Source: an uncultured Bacilli bacterium (lineage in GTDB: Bacteria > Bacillota_I > Bacilli_A > RF39 > UBA660). Taken from it: a stretch of 64,000 bases of DNA. Below the pieces are notes generated by a model that saw nothing but the letters and a program-made list of their open reading frames with translations, made no database searches and was not told the DNA's origin. The stretch spans positions 18,697 to 82,696 of the forward strand of contig CAKOPW010000005.1 in NCBI GenBank assembly GCA_934101115.1. Reading direction: 5' to 3'. A program made the translations under genes and the position numbers. Positions 7,704 through 38,941 of this stretch are shown here, one piece after another; position 1 is the first letter of the stretch; every line of letters starts with the position of its first letter.

Positions 7704-7712
7704 GAATGACTT

Positions 7713-10302: not shown

Positions 10303-10323
10303 TATTAGTATAGAATAATTGGG

Positions 10324-11442
10324 GTGAAGAACATGAAAATGGAATCACAAATACAACTTATTAATATGGAAGATATAATTCCCAATAGATTTCAACCAAG
10401 ACTTCGATTTTCTGAAGAAGGATTAGATGAACTTGCTGAATCTATAAAAGAACATGGAATTATTCAACCACTTGTTTTAAGAAGAGTTGGAAATAAATTT
10501 GAAATAATAGCTGGAGAGAGAAGATTTAAAGCATCAGAATTAGCTGGATTAACTGCAGTTCCTGCAATAATAACTGATTTAGATGATAATGAATCGGCTG
10601 AAGTAGCTATAATTGAAAATACACATAGAAGAAATTTATCAGCAATCGAAGAGGCTAGATCTTATAAAAAACTTTTAGATAGAAAATATGTAACTCAAGA
10701 TCAACTTGCCAAACGTTTAGGTACAAGTCAATCAACTTTAGCCAATAAAATTCGTCTTTTAAGCTTGGCTCCAGAAGTTCAAGATGCTTTGATGAATGAA
10801 AAGATAAGTGAAAGACATGCAAGAAGTTTGCTTAAAGTAACCGATAAACTAAAACAAGTTGAATTATTAAATAAAATCATTAATGAGAGATGGACAGTAA
10901 AAAGACTTGATGATGAAATTCAAGATATTTTATCCAGTTATCAAAACAACAAGAACATAACTGGTGAGGTTCATGCCAACAGCCAACTTGATGTTAATGT
11001 TAACAATATTTTAAACAATTCTACTGATATTGGTACATCTAATGAAGTAAACTACTCATATACAAATGATTTTAGTAATCAAACATCTGGAAAAAAATCT
11101 CTTTTCTTTAACAATTTAGAAAACGAATCTGTTAATATGAACCCTGAAGCATCAATTGGATTCAATCCATTTAAAACAAGTGGAGTTAGCACAAATCCTC
11201 TTTTGAGCGAATTAGACGTTATTGATATAGATGAAGATGAAGAAAATGAAACTAAACCTAAAGAAGAACAAAAAACTAAAGTATATGGTGAACCAATAGT
11301 TGAAACAACCGACGAAATTGAAAATGAATTAAAGAAAATTATTAATCTTGCTAATAAAAAAACTCAAAAGGTTAGATTTGAAGAATTTGATTTTGGAGAT
11401 ATGTATCAAATAGTTATTAAAGTAGACAAAAACGGCCATTAA
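10324..11442 (+). CDS. parB: ParB/Spo0J-family partition protein with long low-complexity C-terminal tail
   Basis: ParB N-terminal motifs IIPNRFQPR and GERRFKA, plus an HTH. No adjacent parA/soj ORF. Confidence 0.8.
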   Translation: MKNMKMESQIQLINMEDIIPNRFQPRLRFSEEGLDELAESIKEHGIIQPLVLRRVGNKFEIIAGERRFKASELAGLTAVPAIITDLDDNESAEVAIIENTHRRNLSAIEEARSYKKLLDRKYVTQDQLAKRLGTSQSTLANKIRLLSLAPEVQDALMNEKISERHARSLLKVTDKLKQVELLNKIINERWTVKRLDDEIQDILSSYQNNKNITGEVHANSQLDVNVNNILNNSTDIGTSNEVNYSYTNDFSNQTSGKKSLFFNNLENESVNMNPEASIGFNPFKTSGVSTNPLLSELDVIDIDEDEENETKPKEEQKTKVYGEPIVETTDEIENELKKIINLANKKTQKVRFEEFDFGDMYQIVIKVDKNGH

Positions 11443-11450
11443 GGTCGTTT

Positions 11451-13367
11451 TCATTTTATATAAGGAGTTTGAGTTCCATCAATAAAGTAAAATAATTCTT
11501 TAGATTTAGCATCATATTTTCCTGTTTTAGGATTCATCGGAATTGCGATAACATTTTCTGGTAAAGAATACCATTCATCATCTATTATATCTTCAGTAAA
11601 TGCATTAACGCTTCGAAGCCATATATCTTTTATTATTTTAGAATAAGCTTTAGGTGTATCTTCATTTTGATCATTTCCCGCCCAAAATATCGATAAAACA
11701 TTGTTGTTATAACCACTTATCCAGTAATCATTATCGGTAGTTCCGCTTTTTAAAGCATACTTTTGATTTAATTTTCCATTTAGATAAATAACGGTAGGTG
11801 AGTTATAATCAACATAATTATAGTTATATGTATTTCTCATCATTTCATTTAAAATATATAAAGCATCATCATTTAAAACTTTTTCTTCTTTATTTTTATG
11901 AATATATAGGACATTACCATCAACATCTTCAATCTTATTTATAAAATAAAGTTCTCTTTTGTAGCCATTGCTTGCAAGTGTTGTGTAAGCTGTTGCATAA
12001 TCTAACATATTGATTTCACTTGCACCTAAAGCAAGAGAAGGATTAGGAGCAAGAGTTTCTTTTAACCCACAAGTTTTTAAAGTATCAACTAAAGTATTTT
12101 CTCCTAAAAATAAATGTGTTTTAACTGCATAGATATTATCAGAATAAGCTAGTGCTAAAGCCATAGATATATCTTTATTCGCGTATTTATTTCCATAATT
12201 AGTTGGATTATAAACCTTATTTTCTTGAAATACAAAAGAAGTTTTTTCTGACTTAAAGGTTGATGCTTCCGTCATACCACTATTTAAAGCTGCATAATAT
12301 AGAAAAGGTTTTATCGTTGATCCAACTTGACGTTTTGATTTTAACACACGATTATATTGGCTTTTAGAATAATTTTTACCACCAGCTAAAGCAACCACCT
12401 TACCATTTCTTGGATTAACAACAATTCCAGCAACTTGATTATCATCATCAAGTGTTTTAGCTTCTATTTCCTCATCCATCGCCTTCTGAGTATCTAAATC
12501 TAAATTAGTATAGATTCTAATTCCTCCGGAATTTATTAATTTTTCTGGAATTGAAGTAATTTTAGAAAGTTCATCCATAACCGCATCTTGATAATACATT
12601 AGAGTATTTAGATTATTTGTACTCTTTTTTCCATATAAATTCAAGTTATCAAAATTAAGATTATTATATAAATCGTCTGTTATAGTACCGTTTTCTTTTA
12701 ACACACTTTTTACTACATTTACTCTTTTCATACAAGCTTCCATATTGGAAATAGGATTATAGTTATTTGGACTTTTAGGAATACCTGCTAAAATAATTGC
12801 TTCTTCATCTGTTAAATCATTAGGTTCTTTATTGAAATAATAGTTAGCTGCATTTTTTATTCCATAAACTCCTTCTCCAAAATAAATTGTATTTAAATAA
12901 CCCTCTAAAATTTCATCTTTAGAATAATGAGTTTCTAATTTTATTGTTAAAAAAGCTTCCTCAATTTTTCTTTCCCAGGTCTGATCAAAAGTTAAGTATA
13001 AGTTCTTTACATATTGCTGACTTATAGAAGAAGCTCCAGCCAGTATTTTTCCTGATTTTATATTAGTAAATAAAGTTTTTAAAATTCTTGGAACATCAAA
13101 TCCTAAATGATGATAAAAATGTTGATCCTCTATAGAAATAATATATTTTAAAAATTTAGGATCTATTTCTTTTAAAGATACCCAGGCACTTTTATTACTT
13201 CCTTGATAAACAACATTATCTTTATTATCATACAAGTAATAAGAATTAGCCGAATTTAAGGACATTGCTGGCATAAAATATGAATAAACATATATTCCAA
13301 TAATTATAACTAAAGTACTGATGAAAAGAAGAATAGATATTTTAAATAGGTTTTTTATATGTTTCAT
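11451..13367 (-). CDS. class A penicillin-binding protein (transglycosylase/transpeptidase)
   Basis: N-terminal TM. Glycosyltransferase motif EDQHFYHHLGFD and SISQQYVKN. Transpeptidase STIKP. Confidence 0.8.
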   Translation of the reverse strand: MKHIKNLFKISILLFISTLVIIIGIYVYSYFMPAMSLNSANSYYLYDNKDNVVYQGSNKSAWVSLKEIDPKFLKYIISIEDQHFYHHLGFDVPRILKTLFTNIKSGKILAGASSISQQYVKNLYLTFDQTWERKIEEAFLTIKLETHYSKDEILEGYLNTIYFGEGVYGIKNAANYYFNKEPNDLTDEEAIILAGIPKSPNNYNPISNMEACMKRVNVVKSVLKENGTITDDLYNNLNFDNLNLYGKKSTNNLNTLMYYQDAVMDELSKITSIPEKLINSGGIRIYTNLDLDTQKAMDEEIEAKTLDDDNQVAGIVVNPRNGKVVALAGGKNYSKSQYNRVLKSKRQVGSTIKPFLYYAALNSGMTEASTFKSEKTSFVFQENKVYNPTNYGNKYANKDISMALALAYSDNIYAVKTHLFLGENTLVDTLKTCGLKETLAPNPSLALGASEINMLDYATAYTTLASNGYKRELYFINKIEDVDGNVLYIHKNKEEKVLNDDALYILNEMMRNTYNYNYVDYNSPTVIYLNGKLNQKYALKSGTTDNDYWISGYNNNVLSIFWAGNDQNEDTPKAYSKIIKDIWLRSVNAFTEDIIDDEWYSLPENVIAIPMNPKTGKYDAKSKELFYFIDGTQTPYIK

Positions 13368-13439
13368 TTCATCACCTTTTATTATAATGAGACAAAATAA
13401 AAAAAATATGATAAAATATCGGCAAGTAAGGAAGATTTT

Positions 13440-13775
13440 ATGGAAAAACTAAAATTTGTTCTTCAAAGTGATGGAGTAGATGCCATTAATCGTGAAGTAA
13501 ATTATTATATAAAAGATAATGTAATTAAATTTAAAATAGATAAAACTTTATATGAATATGACTTAAATAAAGATGTACTTAAAAAAAGTGATGAAAGCTT
13601 GTTAACAATGGATTTTCAAAATCCTTTAATCATTGTAACTTTAAAAGAAAACAATTATAGCTTCGATATTCCTATAATTAATGTTTTAATTGAAAAAGAG
13701 GAGCACATAATAAAAATTAGTTATGATATAGAAGAGGATAAAATGACTAATAAACGTATAATTATAGAATATTAA
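13440..13775 (+). CDS. hypothetical protein (possibly DUF1934/YwiB-like)
   Basis: 111-aa ORF immediately upstream of rpoE. Assignment by context and size only. Confidence 0.35.
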   Translation: MEKLKFVLQSDGVDAINREVNYYIKDNVIKFKIDKTLYEYDLNKDVLKKSDESLLTMDFQNPLIIVTLKENNYSFDIPIINVLIEKEEHIIKISYDIEEDKMTNKRIIIEY

Positions 13776-24408: not shown

Positions 24409-24852
24409 ATGAAAGAGATAGAATTGGAAATAAATGACTATAGAAATAGATTAGAGGAATATTTACTATCAATTGATGGAATATTAGATGTCAAAATAAA
24501 AAATAAAGAATATAATTTTTTTGTTACAATTACATATGATGAAACAAAGATGTTTATTGAAAGAATAGAAAAAGAAATTAAATTATATATTGATAGATTG
24601 AATGAACCAATAGTAGTATCTTTTAATAAGTTTGAGGATAATGAAACAATAAAAGAAATAGTAATTGAAGATGTCTGTTGTGAATATTGCATGGAAGGTA
24701 GTGTAGAAAAATTATTACAAATAGATGGAATAGGTTCGTTTTCATTTGATCAAGATACTAACTATCTAAATATCCCTGCTAAACTTGGATATAATCCAGA
24801 TAAAATAAGTAAAGAAAAATTAAAAGAGATAGAAGCAAGTTTAGAATCTTAA
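24409..24852 (+). CDS. hypothetical protein with C-terminal HMA-like CxxC region
   Basis: VCCEYCMEGSVEKLLQIDGIGSFSFD resembles a heavy-metal-associated fold signature. Confidence 0.35.
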   Translation: MKEIELEINDYRNRLEEYLLSIDGILDVKIKNKEYNFFVTITYDETKMFIERIEKEIKLYIDRLNEPIVVSFNKFEDNETIKEIVIEDVCCEYCMEGSVEKLLQIDGIGSFSFDQDTNYLNIPAKLGYNPDKISKEKLKEIEASLES

Positions 24853-24995
24853 CGTCAATAAGAATAAAATAGTTGTTAAACATATTGACAGATTTTTAAA
24901 ATTTGTATATCATTATATATAGCATGATAGTCTCCCTATCGTGCCGATATATCTAACGATTTTAACAATGTTAGTATATCAACCAAAACCCCCTG

Positions 24996-25027
24996 GCCAT
25001 CCTTTATGGATGGCACTTTTTTTTTTA
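24996..25027 (+). terminator. rho-independent terminator
   Basis: gccatcctttatggatggc followed by a run of ten T residues. Confidence 0.65.
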
Positions 25028-25465
25028 AAATAATTTATTTTGTAGTGTAATATATTTTTGGTCACTACTTTATTCAATGAAAAAATAGGAATTAATTTAA
25101 TTCAATATTTATATGGGTTTACAAGCATATAGGAGAATGAAAACAATTCTTGGAAACAACTTGGGAACGAGTTTTGTTAAAAAAGTATAGTATAATATAA
25201 TTAATAGAGGTGTTTCACGTGTGTAAATGGGAAGATATTCAAACTAAAACTGAATTAGAATTTGTATTTGAGATTATAAAAGAAAAAAATAGGAGATAGT
25301 AGTATTAAAAGAATTTTTTCCTTTGATGATGCTATTCCTAGAAAAAATAATAATAAAATAGAATATAACACATTAGAAGAACCATTATATATTTTATTTG
25401 ATAATGATTATTGCTTAATAATAGAGTTTACTAATTATTCAAACATCTACCTTGATTATAGAAAA

Positions 25466-25876
25466 ATGACACCAGAAAAAATAAAACAAGCTATTGGAAG
25501 TGTTTCAAATAAAGATATTGATTATTTAAATAATTATCATAGAATTCACGGATGGGATTTTGATGATAATCGAAATAGAATTGAAGATAGTTTTGGAATG
25601 AAAGAAATTATTGAAATACATGGAAACTATGATAAGATAAGGGATATTCAAATAGATGGATTCAATGATTCATATGAAAAATGGATAAGTGATGGTAGTA
25701 GTTCATCAATGATTACTATTCCGGCTGGTGGTGATTATTTTAAGTCCATAAAATTTATATTAAATAATGGCATTAAAATAAAAATGGGTCCTCAGGATGC
25801 TGAAATGGATGGATATTATGATTTAATAATAGAAGATGGTAATAACATAATAAAATATAGAAGTGATGAAATATAA
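25466..25876 (+). CDS. hypothetical protein
   Basis: 136-aa ORF. The frame is open upstream without an ATG and a poly-A tract nearby suggests a possible frameshifted longer gene. Confidence 0.3.
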   Translation: MTPEKIKQAIGSVSNKDIDYLNNYHRIHGWDFDDNRNRIEDSFGMKEIIEIHGNYDKIRDIQIDGFNDSYEKWISDGSSSSMITIPAGGDYFKSIKFILNNGIKIKMGPQDAEMDGYYDLIIEDGNNIIKYRSDEI

Positions 25877-25957
25877 CATATCGTAAAAAACAAAACTAAA
25901 ACTATGTTTTAATTGCCTATCTGATAGTTCTGTAGTATTCTATAAGACAGGTGAAGG

Positions 25958-26150
25958 TTATAGAATCTCATGACCTAAAAATGCTTTTTTGTTGGCAATT
26001 GAGTTGGCAAGCTGTAGTGCGAATAATGATTTACCGACTTTAGGTTTAGATACTAATAAGTAAACACCTTTAGACCTCATTATCCCATCGATTATGATGT
26101 CTTTTTTTTATGGTTTCTTTTAGTTCTTCAAAAGCCTTCATATCTATATG
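25958..26150 (-). pseudogene. fragment of a P-loop (AAA_25/RepA-type) replicative helicase or primase-associated ATPase gene
   Basis: Minus-strand reads DIIIDGIMRSKGVYLLVSKPKVGKSLFALQLANSIANKKAFLGHEIL followed by a stop. Only a Walker A fragment survives and the rest is truncated or frameshifted. Confidence 0.4.
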
Positions 26151-26159
26151 TCTCCTTTA

Positions 26160-26390
26160 TTTGATTAGCTCTAGCTTCTAAGTATGGAATATCTATATTT
26201 AAGTATTTAACAACCTCTTGCATTAGTACTGCATTATTTGGAACATAATATTTTTCACTTTCTAATTTTTTCTTTATAGTGCTTTTAATAACTAATGCAT
26301 TATTTCAACCAACACATGCTAGTTTCATTAAATCACTTAAATTACACCATTGTTTTGCTATTAATTTTAATGATTCACTTGCTGTCACAT
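26160..26390 (-). pseudogene. fragment of a DNA-binding (excisionase/HTH-like) gene with an internal stop
   Basis: MTASESLKLIAKQWCNLSDLMKLACVG, a stop, then NNALVIKSTIKKKLESEKYYVPNNAVLMQEVVKYL in the same frame. Confidence 0.3.
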
Positions 26391-26407
26391 ATTATCACAT
26401 CCTTTCC

Positions 26408-26657
26408 TATAATTCGTATTCTTCTTCATTCCATTTATCGTATGGAACAGCATTTGCTTCTAACATATTAGTTTCTGAGTTATATCTTATATACTTAGCG
26501 ATTCTTAATTCCAATAAAGCATCTTTAATATCTTCTTTTGTATCAGAACAATATTTTTTACTTCAAATTTAGTAGTAATATTATTAGTTAATACCATTGT
26601 TAAGAATCCTTTGGCTCTTAAAGATATATTTGGATCTTTTAAAAATTTATCAAAAAC
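26408..26657 (-). pseudogene. RepA_N-like replication initiator fragment, frameshifted
   Basis: FLKDPNISLRAKGFLTMVL... and IKDALLELRIAKYIRYNSETNMLEANAVPYDKWNEEEYEL lie in two different frames. Confidence 0.35.
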
Positions 26658-26866
26658 TATATAAATGCTTTAAAGTTTCCCGTTTTATTACTTCCTTTCT
26701 TCTAAAATAGAGTAGAGTTATCCCTGGGTTCGCCCATATATTCGAAATTTTAGTTATTTCGTAACTTCCGTGCCAATAGGGTTATCATTTCGATCTTGCA
26801 TTTTTATAAGTTCAACATATCGGTGATTTTCACAACTACTAAGTTATAATTAATCATCTCCTCTCT

Positions 26867-26942
26867 GAACGATAACATCAATCGTTGCAAATATAACATT
26901 CAAAAAAGTTTAAGTTGATGATTTTGAACGAAAAATTCGTTC
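26867..26942. promoter_or_regulatory. pair of related palindromes (candidate C-box operators) plus promoter upstream of the controller gene
   Basis: GAACGATAACATCAATCGTTGC at 26867-26888 and the perfect palindrome GAACGAAAAATTCGTTC at 26926-26942. The second lies just upstream of -35 TTTACA (26948-53) and an extended -10 TGgTAAAAT (26969-77). Confidence 0.4.
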
Positions 26943-27020
26943 TTTTTATTTACAATAATTTTTTTTAATGGTAAAATGGTTATAGAAGAGAATAGAAGGT
27001 TTTTAAAAAGAGGTGTAATT

Positions 27021-27542
27021 ATGGCATTAAATGATTTTAAAGATATGGTTGAGAATGCTAGAAAAATAAAAGGTTATTCACAACGAGAATTAGCTAAAAT
27101 GATTGGAATGAGCCAAAGTACATATAATGATACAATTAATGGTAAAATTAAAAAACCAGATATAGATATATTAAAAAAAATTGCTGAGGAGTTAGATTTA
27201 TCTTTAGATTTAATGCTTAAAGAATCAGGATATGGTGAATCATTTTCTATATACGGAATTGATAAATATAAAAATAAATCCACTAAGGATTTAAAAAATT
27301 TAATTGATGAATATAAGAAGTCAGAACTTAAATTATTAGAATTTGATAAACAAAAAAGAGATGTTACTAGGAAAGCAAGGCAAAAAATGTTCACTACAAT
27401 TGAACATATGAAAATAATAAAAGATAGTAAAGATGGTTTATATACAATTGATAAAGCAATTGATGATGTTCAATCTGCATTTGATCAATTAGAAATGGTA
27501 GAACATAAATATGATTATAAAAAGCTACCTAAAGACTTATAA
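27021..27542 (+). CDS. XRE-family HTH regulator (candidate R-M controller protein)
   Basis: HTH GYSQRELAKMIGMSQSTYNDTINGK. First gene of the R-M operon, with a coiled-coil C-terminal extension. Confidence 0.7.
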   Translation: MALNDFKDMVENARKIKGYSQRELAKMIGMSQSTYNDTINGKIKKPDIDILKKIAEELDLSLDLMLKESGYGESFSIYGIDKYKNKSTKDLKNLIDEYKKSELKLLEFDKQKRDVTRKARQKMFTTIEHMKIIKDSKDGLYTIDKAIDDVQSAFDQLEMVEHKYDYKKLPKDL

Positions 27543-27556
27543 TCAGGAGGTACAAC

Positions 27557-29605
27557 ATGAAAAAGAAAAAATATAATGTAATTGATTTATTTGCAGGATG
27601 TGGGGGATTATCAGAAGGATTTCTACAATCCGAAAGATTTAATTTTTTAGCTCATATTGAATGGGAAATGCCAATGGTTGAAACTTTAAGGAATAATCTT
27701 GTTAAAAGATGGAACTACTCAAAAGAAGATGCTGAAAAATCAGTAATAAGATTTGATATACAAAAAACTGAGGAATTATTTAAAGGTAATTGGTCAGACG
27801 ATTCAATAAAAGATTATGGTGAAGATAATAATAAAGAAATAGTTGAAAAAGGAATGGATAACTTGATTGGTGATAAGAAAGTTGATGTTATTATTGGTGG
27901 ACCGCCTTGTCAAGCATATTCACTAGCAGGAAGAGCTCAAAGCCCAAATTCAATGAAAGATGATTATAGAAATTACTTATTTGAGAGCTTTGTTAAAGTA
28001 GTTGATCATTATAAACCTAAAGTTTTCGTTTTTGAAAATGTTCCAGGAATATTAAGCGCAAAGCCAGGAGATAAATTAGTAATAGATAGAATTTATGAAG
28101 CATTTGAAAAGATAAATTATGAAATAAGAAATCCAAAAATGCTTAAAAATGCGATTTATTCTGCTGCAGATTTTGAAACGCCTCAAGATAGACATAGGGT
28201 CATTATAATAGGAGTAAGAAAAGATTATAAAGATAATCCGGAAGATTTTTATCTAGCTTTAGATGAATTAAAATCAAAGCATCCAAAGAAAACAGTTAGA
28301 GATGCCATTGGAAATTTACCTAAATTCAAGCCTTTGGTCGAACCTAGAAAAGGTAAAAATGGTAATATATCACATGAATTAATTGGTAATGAAATTATTC
28401 CTGATCATGAAGCAAGATATAATAATTTAAGAGATATTGAAGTATTTAAAAAATGGATTAAAAATAATATGAATTCTTATACTACTGAAGAAAAGCTTAA
28501 ATTTTATACAGAAACAACTGGTAAAAAGAGCAACCATAATAAATATAGAAATTTAGATTGGGATAAGCCATCTCCAACAATTGTATCTCATTTATATAAA
28601 GATGGTTTAATGTTTATACATCCAGATGAAAAACAAGCTAGATCAATAACTGTTAGAGAAGCTAGTTTACTACAAGGATTTCCTATAGATTTTGAATTTC
28701 TTGGTTCAAATGCATACAAATACAAAATGATAGGAAATGCTGTACCTGTTCAATTTGCTAAAAATATTTCATTAGCATTATGTAATGTTCTTGATGAAGA
28801 TGATTCTAATAATATTTGTTGTGCAAAAAAGAAAGATGATGTTTTAACACTAAAAAATAATAGACCAAAAAGAGTATTAAACGTTTTGGTTGCATGTGAA
28901 GAAAGTCAAAGAGTTTGTACAGAATTTAGAAGATTAGGACATAATGCATATAGCTGTGACTTACTTAATTGCAGTGGTGGACATCCTGAATGGCATTTTA
29001 ATATGGATGTTTTAAAGGTAATTAAAGATAAAGGTGGAATTTTAGAAAATGGTGAAAAGGTAAAAATAGATGGTGATTGGGATTTAATGATAGCTCATCC
29101 ACCCTGCACGTTCTTAGCTGTAAGTGGTGCAAAATGGTATTATCACCCTGATGATAAAGGTTTACCAATTGAACAAAGAAGACCTCATCCCAAATTTCCA
29201 AATAGAGCTCAAGATAGAGAAGATGGTGCTAATTTCTTTATAGCATTAGCTACTGCTAATATAAAATATATTGCAGTGGAAAACCCTATAGGTATAATGA
29301 GTAAAAGATTTAGAAAACCGGACCAAATAATTCAACCATATTGGTTTGGTGATCCATTTTCCAAAGCAACATGTCTATGGTTGAAAAATCTTTCGCCATT
29401 AAAGCCAACAAAAATGGTTGATAAAGGTGAATATGTGGAATTAAAAAGTGGTAAAAGATTACCAAAATGGTATTCAGATGCATTAACAAAAGCAAAAACA
29501 CCAGAAGAAAGAAGAACTTTAAGAAGTAAAACATTCCCAGGCTTTGCTAAAGCTATAGCAGAACAATGGAGTAAGGAGATATTAGAAAATGAAAGTATAT
29601 GTTAG
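27557..29605 (+). CDS. DNA (cytosine-5)-methyltransferase with a second, minimal C5-MTase-like catalytic core fused at the C-terminus
   Basis: Domain 1 (aa 1 to about 410) carries motif I DLFAGCGGLSEGF, IV GGPPCQAYSLAGR, VI FVFENVPGIL and X IGNAVPVQFAK. Domain 2 (aa about 440 to 682) carries DLMIAHPPCTFLAVSG, IAVENPIG and FPGFAKAIAEQW. Confidence 0.85.
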   Translation: MKKKKYNVIDLFAGCGGLSEGFLQSERFNFLAHIEWEMPMVETLRNNLVKRWNYSKEDAEKSVIRFDIQKTEELFKGNWSDDSIKDYGEDNNKEIVEKGMDNLIGDKKVDVIIGGPPCQAYSLAGRAQSPNSMKDDYRNYLFESFVKVVDHYKPKVFVFENVPGILSAKPGDKLVIDRIYEAFEKINYEIRNPKMLKNAIYSAADFETPQDRHRVIIIGVRKDYKDNPEDFYLALDELKSKHPKKTVRDAIGNLPKFKPLVEPRKGKNGNISHELIGNEIIPDHEARYNNLRDIEVFKKWIKNNMNSYTTEEKLKFYTETTGKKSNHNKYRNLDWDKPSPTIVSHLYKDGLMFIHPDEKQARSITVREASLLQGFPIDFEFLGSNAYKYKMIGNAVPVQFAKNISLALCNVLDEDDSNNICCAKKKDDVLTLKNNRPKRVLNVLVACEESQRVCTEFRRLGHNAYSCDLLNCSGGHPEWHFNMDVLKVIKDKGGILENGEKVKIDGDWDLMIAHPPCTFLAVSGAKWYYHPDDKGLPIEQRRPHPKFPNRAQDREDGANFFIALATANIKYIAVENPIGIMSKRFRKPDQIIQPYWFGDPFSKATCLWLKNLSPLKPTKMVDKGEYVELKSGKRLPKWYSDALTKAKTPEERRTLRSKTFPGFAKAIAEQWSKEILENESIC

Positions 29606-31172
29606 AAAAATTGATGATCAATGTGTAACTCATCAAATTAGTTTGAAAAATATTGTATTTAAGGAATTCTTTAATGAGTTAAATAAATTCGAAGTTTCAG
29701 GAGTAAAAAGTGGTTATAGTGAAATGGTCAGTATTTTACCAGCAACTGATTTGAGATTTGATTCTGGATTGAAACATGTAATATCAAGAGAAGGTAATCT
29801 AGAAGTTGGCGATGTTATTGTTTTATATAAAGAAGCTGATAAGTATGAATTAGAGCTAATTAAGCCTACTGATTCAAAGTATACTTTTGTACAAGAATTA
29901 TGTGAGAGAGACAAAAGACATACTTTGCTTGATATTGAATCCAATGAAATCAAAAATGTTGATAGAAAAGAAGAATATAAAAATTGGTTAGTCAATAAAG
30001 GTAAATATACTGATGAAACTATAAAGAATTATGTAAGATATATATCTTATATTTATGATAAAGGTTTAAGCGATAAAGATTTATATACAATTAAGGATAC
30101 ATTAATCATTGATGAATTATTATCAAAATTTAAAAATCAAGAAGAATATATTCAATATAATGAACAAAATAACAGAAATCCATATTATGCTTTGTTACAA
30201 TATAAAGAATTTATTGAAAATACAAATACGCATAAGATTGATGATGTTGATAGATTAGTTGGAGCATATAATAAAATTTATTATGGAATTCCTGGAAGTG
30301 GAAAAAGCTATACCGTTGATGCTAAATTTAATGAAGAAGAATATAAAGTATTTAGAACTACTTTTCACCCTGAATATACAAATAGTGATTTTGTAGGGCA
30401 AATTATTCCTATGGTAAAAGATGATAAAGTAAAATACGAATTTCATCCTGGATCATTTACGCTTGCATTAAAATATGCATTAGAGAATAAAAATAAAAAA
30501 GTATGCTTAATAATAGAAGAAATTAATAGAGGTAATGCTTCTGCAATCTTTGGTGATATATTTCAGTTGCTAGATAGAACAGAAAAAGGAAGAAGTAAGT
30601 ATGAAATATATAACGGTCCTATTCTAGATTATTTTGAAAAAAATGGTATTAATATGAATAAAATATATATTCCATCTAATATGTGGATTATATCTACTAT
30701 GAATACAAGTGATCAAAATGTATTTACTTTAGATACTGCATTTAAACGTAGATGGAAAATGGAATATATAAAAAATGTATTTGCTGATGATGAAAAATCA
30801 AAAGAATTAAGAAATAAGGTTATTCCTTTAGGAGAAAAATATCCTAATGTAACATGGGAGAAATTTGTTAACAAAATAAATAATCATATTATTTCTGATA
30901 CATCAGGAATAAATGGTGAAGATAAACAGCTTGGTATGTATTTTGTTTCTGTTGAAGAAATTAATGATCCAAAAGAATTTGCTGAAAAAATTTTGTCTTA
31001 TTTATGGGAGGATGTTGCAAAATTAAATACTTCATATTGGTTTGGATCAATATCTTCCTATGATGAATTAATCGATTTATTTAACAAAAATTCTTTAGAT
31101 ATATTCAATTCACTATTTGATGATGAAATTAAAGTAACAGAAGAATATACAATTAAAACCGTAGGAGAATAG
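29589..31172 (+). CDS. McrB-family AAA+ GTPase restriction subunit (LlaJI R1-like)
   Basis: GIPGSGKSYTV Walker A, IEEINRGNASAIFGD, and the McrB signature WIISTMNTSDQNVFTLDTAFKRRW. About 230 aa of N-terminal DNA-binding region is unassigned. Confidence 0.8.
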   Translation: MKVYVRKIDDQCVTHQISLKNIVFKEFFNELNKFEVSGVKSGYSEMVSILPATDLRFDSGLKHVISREGNLEVGDVIVLYKEADKYELELIKPTDSKYTFVQELCERDKRHTLLDIESNEIKNVDRKEEYKNWLVNKGKYTDETIKNYVRYISYIYDKGLSDKDLYTIKDTLIIDELLSKFKNQEEYIQYNEQNNRNPYYALLQYKEFIENTNTHKIDDVDRLVGAYNKIYYGIPGSGKSYTVDAKFNEEEYKVFRTTFHPEYTNSDFVGQIIPMVKDDKVKYEFHPGSFTLALKYALENKNKKVCLIIEEINRGNASAIFGDIFQLLDRTEKGRSKYEIYNGPILDYFEKNGINMNKIYIPSNMWIISTMNTSDQNVFTLDTAFKRRWKMEYIKNVFADDEKSKELRNKVIPLGEKYPNVTWEKFVNKINNHIISDTSGINGEDKQLGMYFVSVEEINDPKEFAEKILSYLWEDVAKLNTSYWFGSISSYDELIDLFNKNSLDIFNSLFDDEIKVTEEYTIKTVGE

Positions 31173-31173
31173 T

Positions 31174-32433
31174 ATGAAATTTTCCGATAAAGTAATTTTC
31201 AAAAATGGATATGAAGAAGACAATTTTGTTGGTATAAAATATAGAAAAGATAAAATTAATATCTTTTTACCTATCGGATATAACAAGGATTATTTTAGCA
31301 CAGATGATGAGTTAAGTCCTGAACAAAAAGTGGATTTATTATTATTACTAAAGACTATTACACTAGTTAAAAATTCTAATAATGAAAAAACTGATTTTGG
31401 TGATGATATAGGGAATAACGATGAAGTCCCATATAATTCATTAATATGGATTATAAATGACTATTTTAACAATGGATTATATCAAGAAATCGAAAAAAAA
31501 TACTCTCAAAAAAGTCATGGTAAAATTAATTGGAAAAAAACACTTAATTCAGAGCATTACTTTGAAAACAATAGTGTTACATATATTAATCCTTATTATG
31601 AATCAAATATACAAAGGAGTACTTTAATAACTGAACTTAATAATTATTGTGTTCATAAAAGTTATAAATATATAGGATTTCTATTTGGAAAAGTATATCT
31701 TCCGGAATGTAATATTAGAGAAGAAAGAATTAAAGATAATATTAAATACTATATTGATGTTATTAATAAAGAATTAGCAAAATCTTTTAATGATAGAAAA
31801 AAAATGTTGTTAACTAATATGAAAAGGATTTTTGAAATGTCTTTTGAAGATAGTTTTGAGAATCAACCAACATATGGAACAAGGCGATATGAATATGCTT
31901 GGGAAAAAATGGTAAATGAAACTCTTGGATCTAAAATTGATATTAGTAAGTTTTTTCCTAATGCTTTTTGGAATATACAAGGTAAGATTGAAGAAGATAA
32001 ATCAAAATTAAGACCAGATTCTATTTTGATAGATAATAATTCAAAAAAATTATATATACTTGATGCAAAGTATTATAAATATGGAATTACTAGTAATATT
32101 TCTGATTTACCACATACTGATTCAATTCAAAAACAAATAACATATGGGGATCATATATCAAATAATCCGCACACATATGGTTTTGAAAAAAATAATATAT
32201 ATAATGCATTTATTATCCCATTTAATAAAAACAAAGAACCTTTTAAATGTGATGAGAGCATAAAATATATGGGATTTGCAAATAGTGCATGGAGAGATAA
32301 AAAGGAAACATATAATTATGAACGAATTTCTTTATTATTAATTGATACAAAATATATGATAGATTGTTTTTATCAAAAAGAACGTGCTAATCTTGAACAA
32401 TTAATTGAATTGATAGAAAAATCTTCATTATAG
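31174..32433 (+). CDS. McrC-like PD-(D/E)xK nuclease subunit (LlaJI R2-like)
   Basis: LRPDSILIDNNSKKLYILDAKYYK, a PD..D-x-K motif. Translationally coupled to the McrB-like gene. Confidence 0.7.
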   Translation: MKFSDKVIFKNGYEEDNFVGIKYRKDKINIFLPIGYNKDYFSTDDELSPEQKVDLLLLLKTITLVKNSNNEKTDFGDDIGNNDEVPYNSLIWIINDYFNNGLYQEIEKKYSQKSHGKINWKKTLNSEHYFENNSVTYINPYYESNIQRSTLITELNNYCVHKSYKYIGFLFGKVYLPECNIREERIKDNIKYYIDVINKELAKSFNDRKKMLLTNMKRIFEMSFEDSFENQPTYGTRRYEYAWEKMVNETLGSKIDISKFFPNAFWNIQGKIEEDKSKLRPDSILIDNNSKKLYILDAKYYKYGITSNISDLPHTDSIQKQITYGDHISNNPHTYGFEKNNIYNAFIIPFNKNKEPFKCDESIKYMGFANSAWRDKKETYNYERISLLLIDTKYMIDCFYQKERANLEQLIELIEKSSL

Positions 32434-32624
32434 ATGTTTTGCGTCACTCGCGTCACTTAAATGTATAGGGTGCTCACCTAAAAATAAGTGTCATAAAAAA
32501 ATAGATATGTTAAAAAAACATAACATATTTAATAAGTACGTTAAAAAAGCATATATAAGATTAATTTATATATGTTTTTATATGTTATAATATATATAAT
32601 TATTTATTCTTAGGGGGAATTTGT

Positions 32625-35345
32625 ATGGATGAAAGTATTAACTTCATTAATCGGAAAATTAATGATTTGAATATTAAGATAGAAAAAAATATAGACGATT
32701 CTGTTGATAATAGGGGCTATATGTCTCAAAATATCATAAAGAGTTTAAGAGATTTAGTAGAATATATAGCATTTAAAGTATATGTAATTGAGAATAGAAA
32801 GTGTTATCTTGATTATAATCATGTTAATACTGGCTTAGCAATAAAATATATTAAATGTTTAAGTAAACATGAAATACTAAAGAACTTTCATGCTTTATTA
32901 GAAATTGGTCCTTCACATAATAGTTATAGTGAGGATGGCTCAATTAGATTAATGGTTAAATATCAAGAGTATCTTATTGATCTAAAAAGATATTATTTTG
33001 ATTTGTTTAAAGAAAAAATATTAACAAATTTATATAAATTTCCCATATTTAAAATAGACTCATCTTTATACGATTATTATAAAGAAATATATAATAAGTT
33101 AATTCAAATAAAATTTGATAATAGTGAACGAGTTTTAGGTAACGCATATTATATTAAGAAAACAAAACCTGTCGCAATAGAAGATAGAGTTTTTTATGAA
33201 TTAACATTAACACCAGCTACCGACTATGTTAATAAATTTAATAGAATTATTTTTTATTCCCCAGTTAGAATTCCGGATAATTATGCTATTAAAATAGGCT
33301 ATGTAAGGAAAAATATAAAATCATTTAAATCAGAAGTAGAAATCAAGATAATTAATAATTATGAGATATTTATCAAACCGGCCGAAATAAATAGTTTGTA
33401 CAAAATATTTGGTATTAATAAAAGAGTATCATATCGTGCAAATGAATATGATTATTTTATGCGATTATTAAAAAATAATCGTTGGACATTAAATCATATT
33501 ATTAATTTGAATGATGATGGATTTGAAATAATTAGACAGGAGTCATCAGTTTATAATACTCATCATTTGTTTGAATTGTTAGAAATGATAAGAAATGTTA
33601 TTACTAACAATAAACCTGGTCACAATGTTTTAAACTACTTAATACATGTATTGAGAAATTCTGTAGTTATTGATCAAATAGGTGATGAGCAATGTAAAAT
33701 ACTATCAGATTTATATCTAGAGTATGGATGTAATGTTTTTGAAACTATGCCATATGCTTCTTCATTAAATGGTCATAAAATATCTGTATCAGATTTATTT
33801 GAAATAATTGATCCAGTAAATAGAGAACATGAGTTCTTTGGAAGAAAGATAACTGATTTATGCAATTCGACAAATAGGATTTATTTTTCTTTTAAGGAAT
33901 TAGGTTATGATTCAGAATATGGTAAAAAACTTATAAAAGAATTTAATAAGCGCGTTTATTACAAACATACAGATAGATATTTAGAAACAATTGGAAATAA
34001 AGTCTATATAAGAGGATTTGAAGAAAGTACGATAAAAATTATAGATGTTTTAAAAAGTAAAACTAATGAAAAATATTCTGATTATAAAAATATGTATGAT
34101 ATGTTTTCAATTTTTAGCGATTATGAATTTACTGATAGTATCAAGAAAAATATTTCTGAAAAAATATATATTAATTCAAAAGTTGGTTTAATATATGGCT
34201 CTGCAGGAACAGGCAAAACTGAAATGATTAAAATAATATCTAAAATATTTGATGGTAAAAGAATTGCTTTTTTAGCCAAAACTAATGCTGCTCTAAACAA
34301 TATTAAAATTCGAGTTGGTAAAGAAGCAATGGATAACTATGAATTTTATACTATTGATAAATTTATTGATGATTCTATAAGAGATAGTTATGATTTAGTT
34401 GTTGTGGATGAGTGTAGTATGGTAGAGAATGATATAATGCTTCAAATGTTAAAGAAAAACAATTATGATTGCTTACTATTAGTTGGTGATATATATCAAA
34501 TTGAAGCAATTGAGTTTGGTAACTGGTTTAGATTTGCAAAGGAATTGATTCCTGAAAATTCATATGAACTAACTGAAAATTTTCGAACTACGAATCATGG
34601 ATTAAAGAATTTATGGTCTAAAGTAAGAAATTTAGATGATGGCATTACCGAGAAAACAATTGATGAAGCTTATTCAGAAATATTAAGTGAATCAATATTT
34701 GAAAATAGAGAAGATGAAGAAATTGTTCTATGCCTTAATTATGATGGCCCATATGGGATTAATAATATAAATAGATATTTGCAGATGACAAATAGAAATG
34801 AACCAATAGAATGGGGAATAAATACATATAAGGTTGGAGATCCAATTATATTTAGTGATGTAAGGAGATTTTCTAATGTTTTATATAATAATCTTAAAGG
34901 AAAAATTCTAAAAATTGAAAAGAATGAAGACAGCATAACTTTTGAATTATTTGTGGAAAGAAGAATTTCTGATTTCGATGCCTTTGCAAATAACATTAAA
35001 GTTATTTCTAGGGAAGATGATGGATCGGTTATAGAAATAAAGGTATTACGAAAGGATGATGATGATAAAGATGATGAAGTAGGATATATTGTTCCTTTCA
35101 CGGTATCCTATGCTACATCTATACATAAATCGCAAGGTTTAGAATTTGATTCTGTTAAAATTATTATTTCTGATGAGTCCGAAGAATTAATTACTAAAAA
35201 TATATTTTACACTGCAATAACTAGGTCTAAAAATCATCTTAAAATATATTGGAGTCCAGAATGTCAAAATAAAGTAATAAAGAACATGAGGGATTATACT
35301 TTAAAAGATGATTTAATTATTATAAAAAATAAAATGAAAAACTAA
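32625..35345 (+). CDS. SF1 helicase (RecD/TraA-like, AAA_30 plus UvrD_C) with about 500-aa uncharacterised N-terminal region
   Basis: Walker A GLIYGSAGTGKTEM, Walker B LVVVDECSMV, and C-terminal motif VSYATSIHKSQGLEFDSV. Nothing recognised in aa 1-500. Confidence 0.7.
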   Translation: MDESINFINRKINDLNIKIEKNIDDSVDNRGYMSQNIIKSLRDLVEYIAFKVYVIENRKCYLDYNHVNTGLAIKYIKCLSKHEILKNFHALLEIGPSHNSYSEDGSIRLMVKYQEYLIDLKRYYFDLFKEKILTNLYKFPIFKIDSSLYDYYKEIYNKLIQIKFDNSERVLGNAYYIKKTKPVAIEDRVFYELTLTPATDYVNKFNRIIFYSPVRIPDNYAIKIGYVRKNIKSFKSEVEIKIINNYEIFIKPAEINSLYKIFGINKRVSYRANEYDYFMRLLKNNRWTLNHIINLNDDGFEIIRQESSVYNTHHLFELLEMIRNVITNNKPGHNVLNYLIHVLRNSVVIDQIGDEQCKILSDLYLEYGCNVFETMPYASSLNGHKISVSDLFEIIDPVNREHEFFGRKITDLCNSTNRIYFSFKELGYDSEYGKKLIKEFNKRVYYKHTDRYLETIGNKVYIRGFEESTIKIIDVLKSKTNEKYSDYKNMYDMFSIFSDYEFTDSIKKNISEKIYINSKVGLIYGSAGTGKTEMIKIISKIFDGKRIAFLAKTNAALNNIKIRVGKEAMDNYEFYTIDKFIDDSIRDSYDLVVVDECSMVENDIMLQMLKKNNYDCLLLVGDIYQIEAIEFGNWFRFAKELIPENSYELTENFRTTNHGLKNLWSKVRNLDDGITEKTIDEAYSEILSESIFENREDEEIVLCLNYDGPYGINNINRYLQMTNRNEPIEWGINTYKVGDPIIFSDVRRFSNVLYNNLKGKILKIEKNEDSITFELFVERRISDFDAFANNIKVISREDDGSVIEIKVLRKDDDDKDDEVGYIVPFTVSYATSIHKSQGLEFDSVKIIISDESEELITKNIFYTAITRSKNHLKIYWSPECQNKVIKNMRDYTLKDDLIIIKNKMKN

Positions 35346-35479
35346 TAAGTATATACATATGTATGTGCTTTTTTGTATTAAAATATATTCATTGAATATT
35401 ATAATAATATACCGATAGCGGTATAAATATATTGAAAAATCATACTGGCAACGGTATAATGTAATTAGAGGTGAAAATT

Positions 35480-36406
35480 ATGGAATTTATGACTACAAAA
35501 GAAGCTGTACAAAAATGGAATGTTAGTGAAAGAAGAATACGAAAATTATTACTAGATGGAAGAATTGAAGGTGCTGTAAAAGTAGGTAATAATTGGAATA
35601 TTCCTATTAATGCTAATAAACCAGCTGATAAAAGAAGCATGAAATTAGATAATACTGAATTTAAATTTGATTTACCTGATAATTATTTTGATAAAGTTGA
35701 TGAATTAAATAAAGAATTAAATTCTAAAAGACCTATATCAAAAGAAACATTAAAATCTTTAAAAGAATCTATAAATTTAGAGTGGACTTATAATAGTAAC
35801 GGTATAGAAGGAAATACACTAACTTTAAGAGAAACACAAGTCGTTTTAGAAGGTATTACAGTTGGTGGTAAATCTTTAAAAGAACATTTGGAAGCTATTA
35901 ATCATGAACAAGCAATATTATTCTTAGATGATCTTATTAAGGATAAAGAACCAATCACAGAATGGAATATTAAAAATATTCATCAATTAGTATTAAAAGA
36001 AATAGATAATGATAACGCTGGTAAATATAGAGATGAAAATGTAAAAATAAAAGGTGCTACACATATTCCACCAGATTATTTAATTGTTCCTGAATTAATG
36101 GAAAAATTAATTATTAAATATGAAGATTGGAAAAAATATCATCCAATTATTAGAGCAGCATTATTACATGGAGAATTAGTTAAAATACATCCATTTGTTG
36201 ATGGTAATGGCAGGACTTCAAGATTAGTTATGAACTTATCTTTAATGAATAGCGGATATCTTCCAGTAATTGTAAAAAAAGAAAAAAGATTAGAATACTA
36301 TAATGCTTTAGATAAAGCACATACTACTGGGAATTATACAGATTTTGTTAAATTAGTTAATGAATTAGAAATTGAAATGTTAAATAAATATTTAGAACTG
36401 TTATAA
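35480..36406 (+). CDS. Fic/DOC-family protein with N-terminal HTH
   Basis: Fic motif HPFVDGNGRTSRL. N-terminal excisionase/MerR-like HTH KEAVQKWNVSERRIRKLL. Confidence 0.85.
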   Translation: MEFMTTKEAVQKWNVSERRIRKLLLDGRIEGAVKVGNNWNIPINANKPADKRSMKLDNTEFKFDLPDNYFDKVDELNKELNSKRPISKETLKSLKESINLEWTYNSNGIEGNTLTLRETQVVLEGITVGGKSLKEHLEAINHEQAILFLDDLIKDKEPITEWNIKNIHQLVLKEIDNDNAGKYRDENVKIKGATHIPPDYLIVPELMEKLIIKYEDWKKYHPIIRAALLHGELVKIHPFVDGNGRTSRLVMNLSLMNSGYLPVIVKKEKRLEYYNALDKAHTTGNYTDFVKLVNELEIEMLNKYLELL

Positions 36407-36817: not shown

Positions 36818-37567
36818 ATGACAAGAAAAATTTTAAAAAATATTTTTGATAACTTAGAACAGTCATTATTTAATGATATGAATATACGTATTGAGCATGA
36901 TTTAGAGGATGGTAAATATAGAGAATATTTAGTTAAAAATGTCCTTGAAAAAATTATACCTTCAAAATATAGTATTACAAATGGTTTTATTATTGATAGT
37001 GATAATAATATATCCGATGAAATGGATATAATTATATATGATAGAAATTATGTGCCACCTTTTTTTGATGAAACTTATACTGTAGTACCAATAGAGGCAG
37101 TAATTGTAGTAATACAGGTTAAAACCACACTAACTGCATCTACATTAAAAAATAGTATCACAAATTTAAACTCAATTGATAAACTTAATGCTAAAACTGG
37201 TGGAAAAATAATATCTGCAACATGTGACTTAATTGAGGAAAAGAGATATATTTGTCCATACAAAGTTATAGTAGCTTCTAAGACTGATTATGTTGATGAA
37301 CATGATTTTGCAAGTGATATGAAAAATATTGATATTATTTATATTGTTGAAAAAGATAAATCATTAACCGTAAAGCATAAAAAAAATATAAAAGCTGTTG
37401 TTTGTGAAAATAAAGAAGAACTAATAAAAAATCAAAGCAACTATGAATTAGAAGTGATTAAAGAAAGTAGATTAGCATTTTTTGCTTTGAATTTATTGGA
37501 AAAGATGAAACTAATAAATAATTCAATCATAATTAATTATGAAGAATATATAAAGGGGGCTAAATAA
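36818..37567 (+). CDS. PD-(D/E)xK-like nuclease-fold protein (candidate effector)
   Basis: DIIIYD...IEAVIVVIQVK resembles a restriction-endonuclease-like core. About 130-aa C-terminal region is unassigned. Overlaps the next gene by 1 nt. Confidence 0.35.
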   Translation: MTRKILKNIFDNLEQSLFNDMNIRIEHDLEDGKYREYLVKNVLEKIIPSKYSITNGFIIDSDNNISDEMDIIIYDRNYVPPFFDETYTVVPIEAVIVVIQVKTTLTASTLKNSITNLNSIDKLNAKTGGKIISATCDLIEEKRYICPYKVIVASKTDYVDEHDFASDMKNIDIIYIVEKDKSLTVKHKKNIKAVVCENKEELIKNQSNYELEVIKESRLAFFALNLLEKMKLINNSIIINYEEYIKGAK

Positions 37568-38490
37568 TGAGTAATTCATTGACTGAAGATTTTAATAAGT
37601 TTGTAGAAATTATTTCGCTAAATAGTAAAGAAGAAGAGGATATTAAAAGTAAACATAATAGTCTTATCAATATGATTATTGCTGATCCACCAAAAGGCTA
37701 TAATATTGTTAAAACAAGGCTTAGTGGTTCATATGCAAAGCATACAGTTTTAAATGAATATAACGTGGATAAACTACCAGATGTTGATATTATTACAATT
37801 ATAGATTCTTGTGATAAAAGTGTAGATGAGATAAATGCTGATTTTTTAAACTATTTTGAAGATAAAAAAGGTAAAGTAACTTCAAATATTAGGCAGCAAT
37901 CTAATTCTATTGGAATAATATATTCTAATATAAGCGTTGATATGGTAATTGGTATTCTTAAAGATGACAAATTAAAAATATGTTCTAATAAAAAACATGA
38001 TTGGATATCATCGAATGCCTTGATACATATTGATTACATGATAAAAAAGAATAAAGAATATGAAGGATTCAGTTATTATAGTTTAATGAAACTTTTCAAG
38101 TATTTAAATAAAGAACAATTGAATAATAAATTAAAGTCATATACATTAGAACAATTGATTCATAAATGTTGTCCAATTCCAACAGTAGGATTAAGATTAT
38201 ATCAAGCATTTGCTAAGACACTTGATAATATAAAAGAAATATCATTAATTACGGAAATTAGAGATTGTTGCGATGAAGATAAGGATGGTTATGATGAAAA
38301 AGATGTATTGATATTTGATTCCTTTAAAGAAGAAATTGCAAATTACTCTAGTTTAGCAAAAGAAGCATTAGATGGTAACAGAAAAAAATGGCAAGAGATA
38401 TTTGGAGATAGGTTTCCATGCCAACCAAATGAAATAGTAAAGAATGAGGCAAATTATGACAAAAGTCATACACCATGGTGTTATAAATAA
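37567..38490 (+). CDS. SMODS/CD-NTase-like nucleotidyltransferase
   Basis: Pol-beta NTase signature LSGSYAKHTVLNEYNVDKLPDVDIITII, i.e. GS...DxD. Confidence 0.5.
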   Translation: MSNSLTEDFNKFVEIISLNSKEEEDIKSKHNSLINMIIADPPKGYNIVKTRLSGSYAKHTVLNEYNVDKLPDVDIITIIDSCDKSVDEINADFLNYFEDKKGKVTSNIRQQSNSIGIIYSNISVDMVIGILKDDKLKICSNKKHDWISSNALIHIDYMIKKNKEYEGFSYYSLMKLFKYLNKEQLNNKLKSYTLEQLIHKCCPIPTVGLRLYQAFAKTLDNIKEISLITEIRDCCDEDKDGYDEKDVLIFDSFKEEIANYSSLAKEALDGNRKKWQEIFGDRFPCQPNEIVKNEANYDKSHTPWCYK

Positions 38491-38941
38491 AAAAAATATA
38501 GAAATATCTATAAAAAAATATGACTTTAAGATTCTTGATTATAATGAAAATAATGAATACATAAAAACAATTATTGAAAAAGATTACGCAAAAAGTTTTA
38601 ATATAGATTTTAATGGGATAATTAAAGTAGAATGTATAATAATGCGTAAGATGTATGATATGTTTTGTGTTTATACGTATCCAAAATTTAAAGAAATATC
38701 TAATATAATTCCAAAGAAGGCATTTTATCATATGTACGAAGATGGTAGTATTTGTTATGCGCCTCCTAAAAGACCATTGGTTGAAAAATGGAGTTTAGAA
38801 GATTTTATAAGTTCTATAGATTCCTTTTTTCATAACTATTTTTCGATTGAATATATTGGAGAAGGCGAATTATTTCAACTTGAACATGGTGAAAAAGGAT
38901 TAATACAATATGAATTTATTTATAGAGTTTCAGAAAATTAA
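38444..38941 (+). CDS. small E2 (UBC-fold)-like protein
   Basis: HMYEDGSICYAPP resembles the E2 HPN...G.IC active-site region. 165 aa. Overlaps the upstream gene. Confidence 0.4.
   Translation: MRQIMTKVIHHGVINKKNIEISIKKYDFKILDYNENNEYIKTIIEKDYAKSFNIDFNGIIKVECIIMRKMYDMFCVYTYPKFKEISNIIPKKAFYHMYEDGSICYAPPKRPLVEKWSLEDFISSIDSFFHNYFSIEYIGEGELFQLEHGEKGLIQYEFIYRVSEN

Follow-up and report, generated by a model that had tools for sequence, protein, structure and literature searches.

Four adjacent genes in the DNA analysed here, a 64,000-nucleotide stretch of contig CAKOPW010000005.1 from an uncultured Bacilli bacterium (the window), most likely encode a Type II, modification-blocked restriction-modification (RM) system of the LlaJI family, carried as cargo by an integrative mobilisable element, now decayed, within a defence island of a low-GC gut Firmicute. 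Systems of this type are already known, and the result for the window is mostly the annotation of a known defence type in a defence island. Its methylase, a protein of 682 amino acids (aa), is predicted to be a fusion of two methylase modules, a canonical cytosine C5-methyltransferase (C5-MTase) and a minimal one. The operon, as laid out in the list of open reading frames (ORFs), consists of the following genes:

27021..27542, + strand: XRE-family helix-turn-helix (HTH) regulator, 173 aa (HTH_3 profile, gene callers and homologues)
27557..29605, + strand: M, the 682-aa methylase
29589..31172, + strand: R1, McrB-like AAA+ (GTPase-type) specificity and motor subunit, 527 aa (profile, BLAST and PDB sequence matches)
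31174..32433, + strand: R2, LlaJI-family McrC-like PD-(D/E)xK nuclease, 419 aa (Pfam, homology and motifs)

The first and second genes are separated by 14 nucleotides (nt), the second overlaps the third by 17 nt, and 1 nt lies between the third and fourth. This layout bears out the four co-oriented, tightly spaced genes of the preliminary description, which had been made from the sequence alone and ran from 26867 to 32433. The end of that interval is exact, but its start is not a gene start: it lies within the first of two palindromes that precede the genes (26866-26886). Metagenome gene callers and all homologues place the start of the HTH gene at 27021 (173 aa, ribosome-binding site GAGGTG); an alternative in-frame ATG at 26976 would give 188 aa. 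The profile searches that the preliminary description had proposed as a check gave a family match for each of the four proteins: HTH_3 (8e-15) for the first, DNA_methylase (PF00145, 1e-60, aa 1-405 only) for the second, AAA_5 (2e-9) and NCBIfam McrB (3e-16) for the third, and RE_LlaJI (PF09563, 3.9e-33) for the fourth. PADLOC models of Type II restriction endonucleases, which have exactly the lengths of R1 and R2.LlaJI, matched the third and fourth genes at 6e-64 and 5e-49.

Six independent human-gut metagenome assemblies carry the same four ORFs at 98.7-100% nucleotide identity, the 682-aa ORF included, all of them full length and with intact catalytic motifs, so that the operon is not an assembly artefact. 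The ORFs are also intact in a 77%-identical locus, L015, the closest relative, from a Bacilli metagenome-assembled genome; recurrence in the six assemblies and in L015 rules out an assembly or frameshift error as the origin of the 682-aa ORF.

To place the restriction genes, plasmid pNP40 was located by tblastn of plasmids and its annotated LlaJI cassette, M1-M2-R1-R2, was compared with the operon. R2 scored 115.6 bits against the RE_LlaJI model (cutoff 23.6) and is 30% identical to R2.LlaJI of pNP40 over 98% of its length. Its RPD (aa 280-282) and LDAK (aa 296-299) form a PD...DxK motif (D282 ... D297-A-K299), in keeping with the McrC-type PD..D-x-K nuclease described at the outset; a sequence search of the PDB gave no match for R2. 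R1 is 40% identical to R1.LlaJI over aa 134-504, including MNTSDQNVFTLDTAF(K/Q)RRW, and its aa 221-485 align to the McrB cryo-EM structures 6HZ4/6UT6 (5e-16). The Walker A motif and MNTSD signature from which a McrB-type GTPase had been proposed are both present, and the domains of R1 are as follows:

29589-29963, + strand: R1 aa 1-125, predicted B3-type DNA-binding domain (match to PDB 6C5D)
R1 aa ~218-500: AAA+ domain, with Walker A GIPGSGKS at aa 233-240, Walker B IIEE at aa 308-311 and MNTSDQ at aa 371-376

The first ~130 residues of R1 are unrelated to R1.LlaJI by BLAST. They match the N-terminal domain of Helicobacter pylori LlaJI.R1, which, as described in two reports, is a B3 domain that binds its unmodified site specifically (PMC7680126; PMC12707154). 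Because aa 1-125 align to the whole of this solved domain (PDB 6C5D, E 1e-13), the DNA reader of R1 is most likely a B3 pseudobarrel for site-specific recognition of unmodified DNA; identity to 6C5D is low, and the same target sequence therefore cannot be assumed. The homology of R2 and R1 to LlaJI, together with the match of the R1 N-terminus to the H. pylori B3 domain, makes the family assignment sound, and we assign the locus by sequence to the LlaJI-family RM operons of the two-subunit type.

Other McrB-based systems fit less well. E. coli McrBC, a Type IV system, shares the AAA+ GTPase-type motor and the PD-(D/E)xK partner, but it has no cognate methylase, reads methylated cytosine through a DUF3578 domain and bears the signature MNxxDR where R1 has MNTSDQ. 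BsuMI and LlaI are likewise McrB-like, NTPase-based Type II restriction systems with cognate methylases (PMC1459862). They use three R genes, and their McrB-like subunit is short (~340 aa) and has no DNA-binding N-terminus (PMC1459862), whereas the window has two R genes and a 527-aa R1 with a B3-type reader, and the gene after R2 encodes an unrelated superfamily 1 (SF1) helicase (PADLOC PDC-S53). Of the LlaJI/BsuMI type named in the preliminary description, the LlaJI part was upheld and the BsuMI part was not. The accompanying label 'methylation-dependent-like' has to be dropped: LlaJI acts on unmethylated DNA, and methylation blocks its cleavage (PMC1459862, PMC3874153).

The second gene had been described as a single C5-MTase. 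A Dcm domain does occupy aa 1-405, but it is not alone: a second, methylase-like module of ~240 aa is fused to it in frame through a linker of ~15-20 aa, giving the following predicted modules:

27557..28831, + strand: M module 1, aa 1-~425, canonical C5-MTase (Dcm) (Pfam, 1e-60)
28871..29605, + strand: M module 2, aa ~439-682, minimal C5-MTase-like module (mini module), ~240 aa (PHROG match, motifs and fold comparison)

Module 1 has FAGCGG at aa 12-17, PPCQ at aa 116-119 (Cys118), ENV at aa 160-162 and GNAVP at aa 393-397, and is 25-26% identical to M1 and M2.LlaJI. In the mini module we found ACEESQ (aa 446-451), SCD (aa 466-468), PPCT (aa 515-518; Cys517), ENP (aa 575-577) and RSKTFPGFA (aa 656-664). 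Pfam, NCBIfam and PDB sequence searches with this C-terminal module gave no match; it was identified solely by PHROGs, where it matches PHROG 757 'DNA methyltransferase' at 2.9e-62, and by fold comparison, in which it resembles C5-MTases. An alignment of 52 homologues, down to 41% identity, showed ACEESQ, S-C-D, PPCT, ENP, QP..FG and RSKTF.G.A.A..QW to be invariant.

The mini family is large (4479 clusters at 50% identity, for E<=1e-3), and nearly all its members are 190-280 aa long. It includes the small 'Dcm-like' genes of Drexlerviridae phages; a distant relative from phage FritzSarasin is 26% identical (8e-16). One such 711-bp phage gene is reported to make 5-methylcytosine (5mC) in vivo and to trigger retron Ec86 (bioRxiv 10.1101/2023.08.16.553469), and the FritzSarasin protein is annotated as the same 'Dcm-like' type, a link that consists of shared annotation and family, not of direct alignment. 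The phage enzymes (phrog_757) belong to the same minimal family and have the equivalent catalytic Cys and Glu. They are orphan, stand-alone enzymes of the anti-restriction type, whereas in the window's clade (59-86% identity) the mini gene occurs inside restriction systems and always beside a Dcm gene.

The mini module has more than 8000 matches among database proteins, and the best 120 of these are all stand-alone proteins of 239-281 aa, 74-100% identical to it. One database protein of 239 aa, P0001, is 100% identical to the mini module and lies on a 2.3-kb contig; it is probably a truncated gene call. One genome per species was then scanned, giving 80 loci, of which 60 have a Dcm gene (50-79% identical to module 1) directly upstream of a mini gene (59-86% identical), the two usually overlapping by a few bases. 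The two are separate adjacent genes in 59 of the 60; the only single ORF besides that of the window is in L015. The fusion is thus lineage-specific and the gene pair widespread, occurring in ~60 species genomes of several phyla. Cultured carriers are Lachnobacterium bovis DSM 14045, Eubacterium oxidoreducens DSM 3217 (L022), where the pair is naturally split, Actinobacillus indolicus 46K2C and Prevotella disiens JCM 6334. Given this spread and the more than 8000 close mini-MTase proteins in metagenomes, such systems are not rare, contrary to what had been supposed. At 38-47% identity, mini homologues stand without a neighbouring Dcm gene.

The gene that follows the pair is nearly always a McrB-like AAA_5 gene, and after it comes a nuclease that varies in type. 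The order Dcm, mini, McrB-like AAA_5, nuclease recurs in ~50 species loci, and two relatives that were looked up show the same neighbourhood, with a Dcm gene (414 aa), a mini gene (248-259 aa), AAA_5 and RE_LlaJI. The nucleases partnering the pair are of the RE_LlaJI family (8 close and 19 divergent), classical McrC (PF10117) in 6 cases and DUF2357/PDDEXK_7 in ~11. The restriction genes are less conserved than the methylase pair, R1 AAA+ domains being 28-48% identical and R2 proteins 25-38% identical or undetectable. The conserved pair of Dcm and mini-MTase would accordingly be the cognate methylation module of many McrB-motor restriction systems with at least four types of nuclease partner, and automated annotation of such systems sees one methylase only, the second half having no Pfam model. 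No description of this pairing as the methylation module of McrB-motor RM systems, nor of a natural Dcm/mini fusion, was found in the literature searched.

The closest named system, LlaJI of Lactococcus lactis pNP40 (M1, M2, R1, R2; target GACGC/GCGTC), has the same gene order and orientation as the window. The two share a full-length R2 homologue (30%, RE_LlaJI), an R1 AAA+ domain that is 40% identical and bears the MNTSDQN signature, two C5-MTase modules, predicted ones in the window, and carriage on a mobile element; they differ in the N-terminal domain of R1. Both LlaJI methylases are full-size Dcm proteins, whereas the second of the window is a ~240-aa module of another family, fused to the first. 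Because the 682-aa protein would comprise two fused MTase modules, the locus appears to keep the M1-M2-R1-R2 logic of LlaJI, two methylases for one site, with an M2 drawn from a different, minimal family.

A further proposal we make only tentatively, and with some doubt: the mini module may represent a distinct, little-studied minimal class of DNA C5-MTase that has no recognisable target-recognition domain and is, in a widespread clade, the obligate partner of a Dcm enzyme, the two together forming a two-headed enzyme for McrBC/LlaJI-type systems. If this is true, the specificity of the mini enzyme would come from its Dcm partner or from distortion of the DNA, or else a minimal reader would suffice for it to methylate an asymmetric site on the second strand; the natural fusion would be direct genetic evidence that both modules work as one physical unit. 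By the Rosetta-stone argument, the fusion suggests joint action of the two methylases, and as a single polypeptide it provides a construct for asking how a C5-MTase of ~240 aa without a target-recognition domain gets its specificity.

The gene heading the operon had been described as an XRE-type HTH controller. The HTH_3 fold was confirmed, but a dedicated controller protein (C-protein) of an RM system was not. The features bearing on this are:

26866..26886, no strand: upstream palindrome O1 (TGAACGATAACATCAATCGTT), putative operator, conserved in locus L101
26925..26943, no strand: upstream palindrome O2 (TTGAACGAAAAATTCGTTC), putative operator abutting the -35 box, conserved in L101
26949..26977, + strand: promoter-like site, TTTACA, 17 nt, TAAAAT, with TG before the -10 box (10/12 consensus matches, from consensus only)
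25889..26388, - strand: pseudogene remnants of an element backbone, an AAA_25 protein and an 84-aa protein (tblastn of L101 proteins)

L101 is an intact int/Mob_Pre element in which the HTH gene lies divergent from an integrase, a Mob_Pre relaxase, an AAA_25 gene and two small genes, and heads two unrelated proteins of 321 and 1022 aa. In the window the AAA_25 remnant covers aa 15-84 of 318 only and has two in-frame stops, and the remnant of the 84-aa protein has one stop (61% and 71% identity to L101, with E values of 1e-19 and 1e-32, respectively); no integrase or relaxase is left at the element remnant. The operator, -35 and -10 layout of the window is repeated in L101, with counterparts of O1 (TGAACGATAATATCGTTCA) at the same distance (-155) from the HTH start and of O2 (TTGAACGAAAAAATCGTTCAA) at -97. 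The palindromes thus track the backbone of the mobile element and not the cargo. O2 also scores as a terminator-like hairpin. That the GAACGA palindromes are target sites of the RM system, as in the LlaJI promoter, was ruled out, because they are conserved in L101, an element with unrelated cargo.

The 173-aa HTH family comprises 493 database proteins of uniform length. Its members, 60-94% identical, also head a Dam-like MTase cluster in L096-98 and, in L099/L100, a LlaJI-type system with a Dcm/N6-adenine fusion methylase and an HTH_73 reader on R1. Among the 80 loci this HTH occurs in L015 only (54% identity) and is absent from ~60 other loci with Dcm and mini genes. In an AlphaFold2 model the N-terminal part is a five-helix HTH and the C-terminal part a long helical hairpin, which plausibly serves dimerisation; this helical tail of ~90 aa is conserved in length across the family. 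A different conserved motif, TTGTCCGAAAATnTAGAC, lies ~80 nt upstream of the HTH start in L015, L096 and L099, overlapping a -35-like box and without TGAACGA palindromes, so operator specificity appears to have diverged within the family, with these forming a second subgroup.

We conclude that the HTH protein regulates the cargo slot of an integrative mobilisable element, and very probably this operon with it, and that it is not a dedicated C-protein. Regulator and operators would then belong to a mobile-element chassis and head interchangeable defence cargo, which counsels caution in calling every HTH next to RM genes a C-protein. An element-borne regulator of such an RM system was not found described in the literature searched. 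Canonical LlaJI has no C-protein and, according to PMC11779793, citing O'Driscoll 2005, is regulated by its own methylases, whereas the window operon is headed by the element-borne HTH gene.

In the mechanism that we propose, a single promoter (26949-26977) would drive HTH-M-R1-R2, and a dimer of the HTH protein probably binds both TGAACGA-N5-7-TCGTT palindromes and autoregulates the operon. The 682-aa protein would have two C5 active sites, Cys118/Glu160 and Cys517/Glu575. Acting together like M1 and M2 of LlaJI, they would methylate a probably asymmetric site on both strands and thereby protect the DNA of the host. R1 would read the unmethylated site through its N-terminal B3 domain, form an AAA+ ring and recruit R2; hydrolysis of nucleoside triphosphate would then drive translocation, and the PD-(D/E)xK site of R2 would cut foreign DNA, by analogy with McrBC and LlaJI. 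In LlaJI all of M1, M2, R1 and R2 are needed, unmethylated DNA is what is restricted, and R1 serves as the specificity subunit (PMC1459862); in Clostridium cellulovorans, a four-gene system resembling LlaJI is a real barrier to transfer (PMC11779793).

Several points weigh against this account. It rests on homology, domain content, motif integrity, conservation of gene order and mobile-element context, and the rest we infer. In vitro cleavage and GTPase activity have never been reconstituted for LlaJI itself (PMC1459862). The regulator stands ahead of both M and R, an arrangement in which expression of R cannot lag behind that of M in the manner of a classical C-protein. In the mini module, ACEESQ takes the place of FxGxG, the glycine-rich motif I for S-adenosylmethionine binding; the module also lacks a PF00145 match and has only ~45 residues in place of a target-recognition domain, so that sequence specificity, and even use of the cofactor, can only be presumed for it. 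These same features could mean that the module is a non-catalytic or accessory partner, such as a DNMT3L-like scaffold or a specificity or processivity factor for Dcm, leaving one methylase activity and a site that may be symmetric; in addition, mini always adjoins the Dcm gene in this clade, and it is more conserved than its partner (59-86% against 50-79%). We nevertheless think an accessory role quite unlikely, in view of the invariance of PPC, ENP, the acidic residue of SCD and the C-terminal RSKTF.G.A in the 52 aligned sequences, of the remoter family members that stand alone in phages or prophage-like contexts with no Dcm neighbour, and of the phage-branch member reported to make 5mC by itself. 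The element carrying the operon has decayed, and loss of function would thus be compatible with the sequence. On this ground the locus might be a dead relic, a solitary methylase with inactive restriction genes, the more so as the element backbone upstream is pseudogenised and a neighbouring 136-aa ORF has 10 non-synonymous and 2 synonymous changes between strains. Against this, which we regard as very unlikely, stand the four full-length ORFs with intact catalytic motifs in six assemblies, and five synonymous but no non-synonymous changes in R2 relative to the related contig L004, counts too small for a formal dN/dS test.

The two remaining alternatives concern what the regulator and the nuclease do. 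A genuine C-protein timing R after M would explain why an HTH_3 gene immediately precedes the RM genes in the same orientation and has two palindromes ahead of its promoter, and the closest relative with a fused methylase, L015, carries the HTH gene as well. We think it unlikely: the protein is, at 173 aa and with a coiled helical tail, twice the size of the small C-proteins (~70-100 aa); its gene precedes M as well as R, whereas a C gene is usually co-transcribed with R and M is expressed independently; and, as set out above, its family heads unrelated cargo, its palindromes are conserved with the element backbone, and other Dcm and mini loci lack it. As for the nuclease, the homology of R1 and R2 to McrB and McrC, and the true McrC (PF10117) partners at some loci with the same methylase pair, would fit a McrBC-like Type IV, modification-dependent nuclease acting on foreign methylated DNA, with the methylases serving another purpose. 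This is highly improbable. The methylases are translationally coupled to R1, through the 17-nt overlap here, and keep the same order in ~50 loci; the reader of R1 is matched by the B3 domain of the site-specific LlaJI.R1 type, not by DUF3578, YTH or another methyl-reading domain; and LlaJI itself is modification-blocked. In a relative where the R chassis is the same but the reader is another (HTH_73), the methylases differ too, and such a joint change of reader and methylases is expected if both share a target. The Type II, modification-blocked LlaJI-family system therefore stays our preferred reading of the operon.

That relative, L099/L100 (Firmicutes bacterium CAG:884), has at 7001-13532 the same HTH and helicase genes as the window, an R1 whose AAA+ domain is 50% identical and an R2 that is 40% identical. 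Its methylase set consists of an 804-aa fusion of Dcm with a gamma-class N6-adenine module (NPPF) and an unrelated 254-aa protein, and its R1 carries HTH_73 in place of B3. Reader and methylases thus appear to swap together on a constant motor and nuclease chassis.

Further defence genes follow the operon:

32625-35345: SF1 helicase, 906 aa, matching the PADLOC candidate PDC-S53 almost end to end (1.6e-292)
35471-36406: Fic/SoFic-like protein with an N-terminal HTH, after the helicase
36818-38941: DUF6602 protein, SMODS nucleotidyltransferase and a small ORF, a CBASS-like or related signalling defence module

An 11.07-kb block (25338-36406), comprising the element remnants, HTH, M fusion, R1, R2, PDC-S53 helicase and Fic genes, recurs in other metagenome contigs (L004, L006) at 98.7% identity with both flanks different. 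Because the flanks differ on both sides, the block appears to be exchanged as a unit within the defence island. It lies downstream of recG, where relatives carry other cargo, and in sister strains a Gabija-like pair (OLD/AAA_15 and UvrD) and AbiEii replace the DUF6602/SMODS module; the surroundings are a variable defence island. The helicase may be functionally linked to the RM system, since in L099/L100, which are more distant, this helicase likewise comes after the LlaJI-type operon.

Just past recG, a conserved CAACCAAAACCCCCTG motif is followed by a hairpin and a T-run in the window (~24975-25030), L015 (~4855-4905) and L099 (~6781-6835). The motif, at the edge of the variable island in these three related genomes, may be a conserved terminator or an insertion site of the island; an Rfam scan of 24800-27050 at E<=1 gave no match. 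The 136-aa ORF mentioned above (25466-25876) matches no family, is annotated otherwise (92 aa) by gene callers in L004 and differs between strains at 10 codons non-synonymously and at 2 synonymously; it is unlikely to be a functional gene. Across the 64-kb window GACGC occurs 5 times (6.3 expected) and CCWGG 20 times (22.8 expected); neither these counts nor those of other k-mers gave a clue to the recognition site. GATC is markedly under-represented, with 101 occurrences against ~173 expected under a Markov model, and its scarcity may be the trace of a GATC-specific restriction system elsewhere in the genome.

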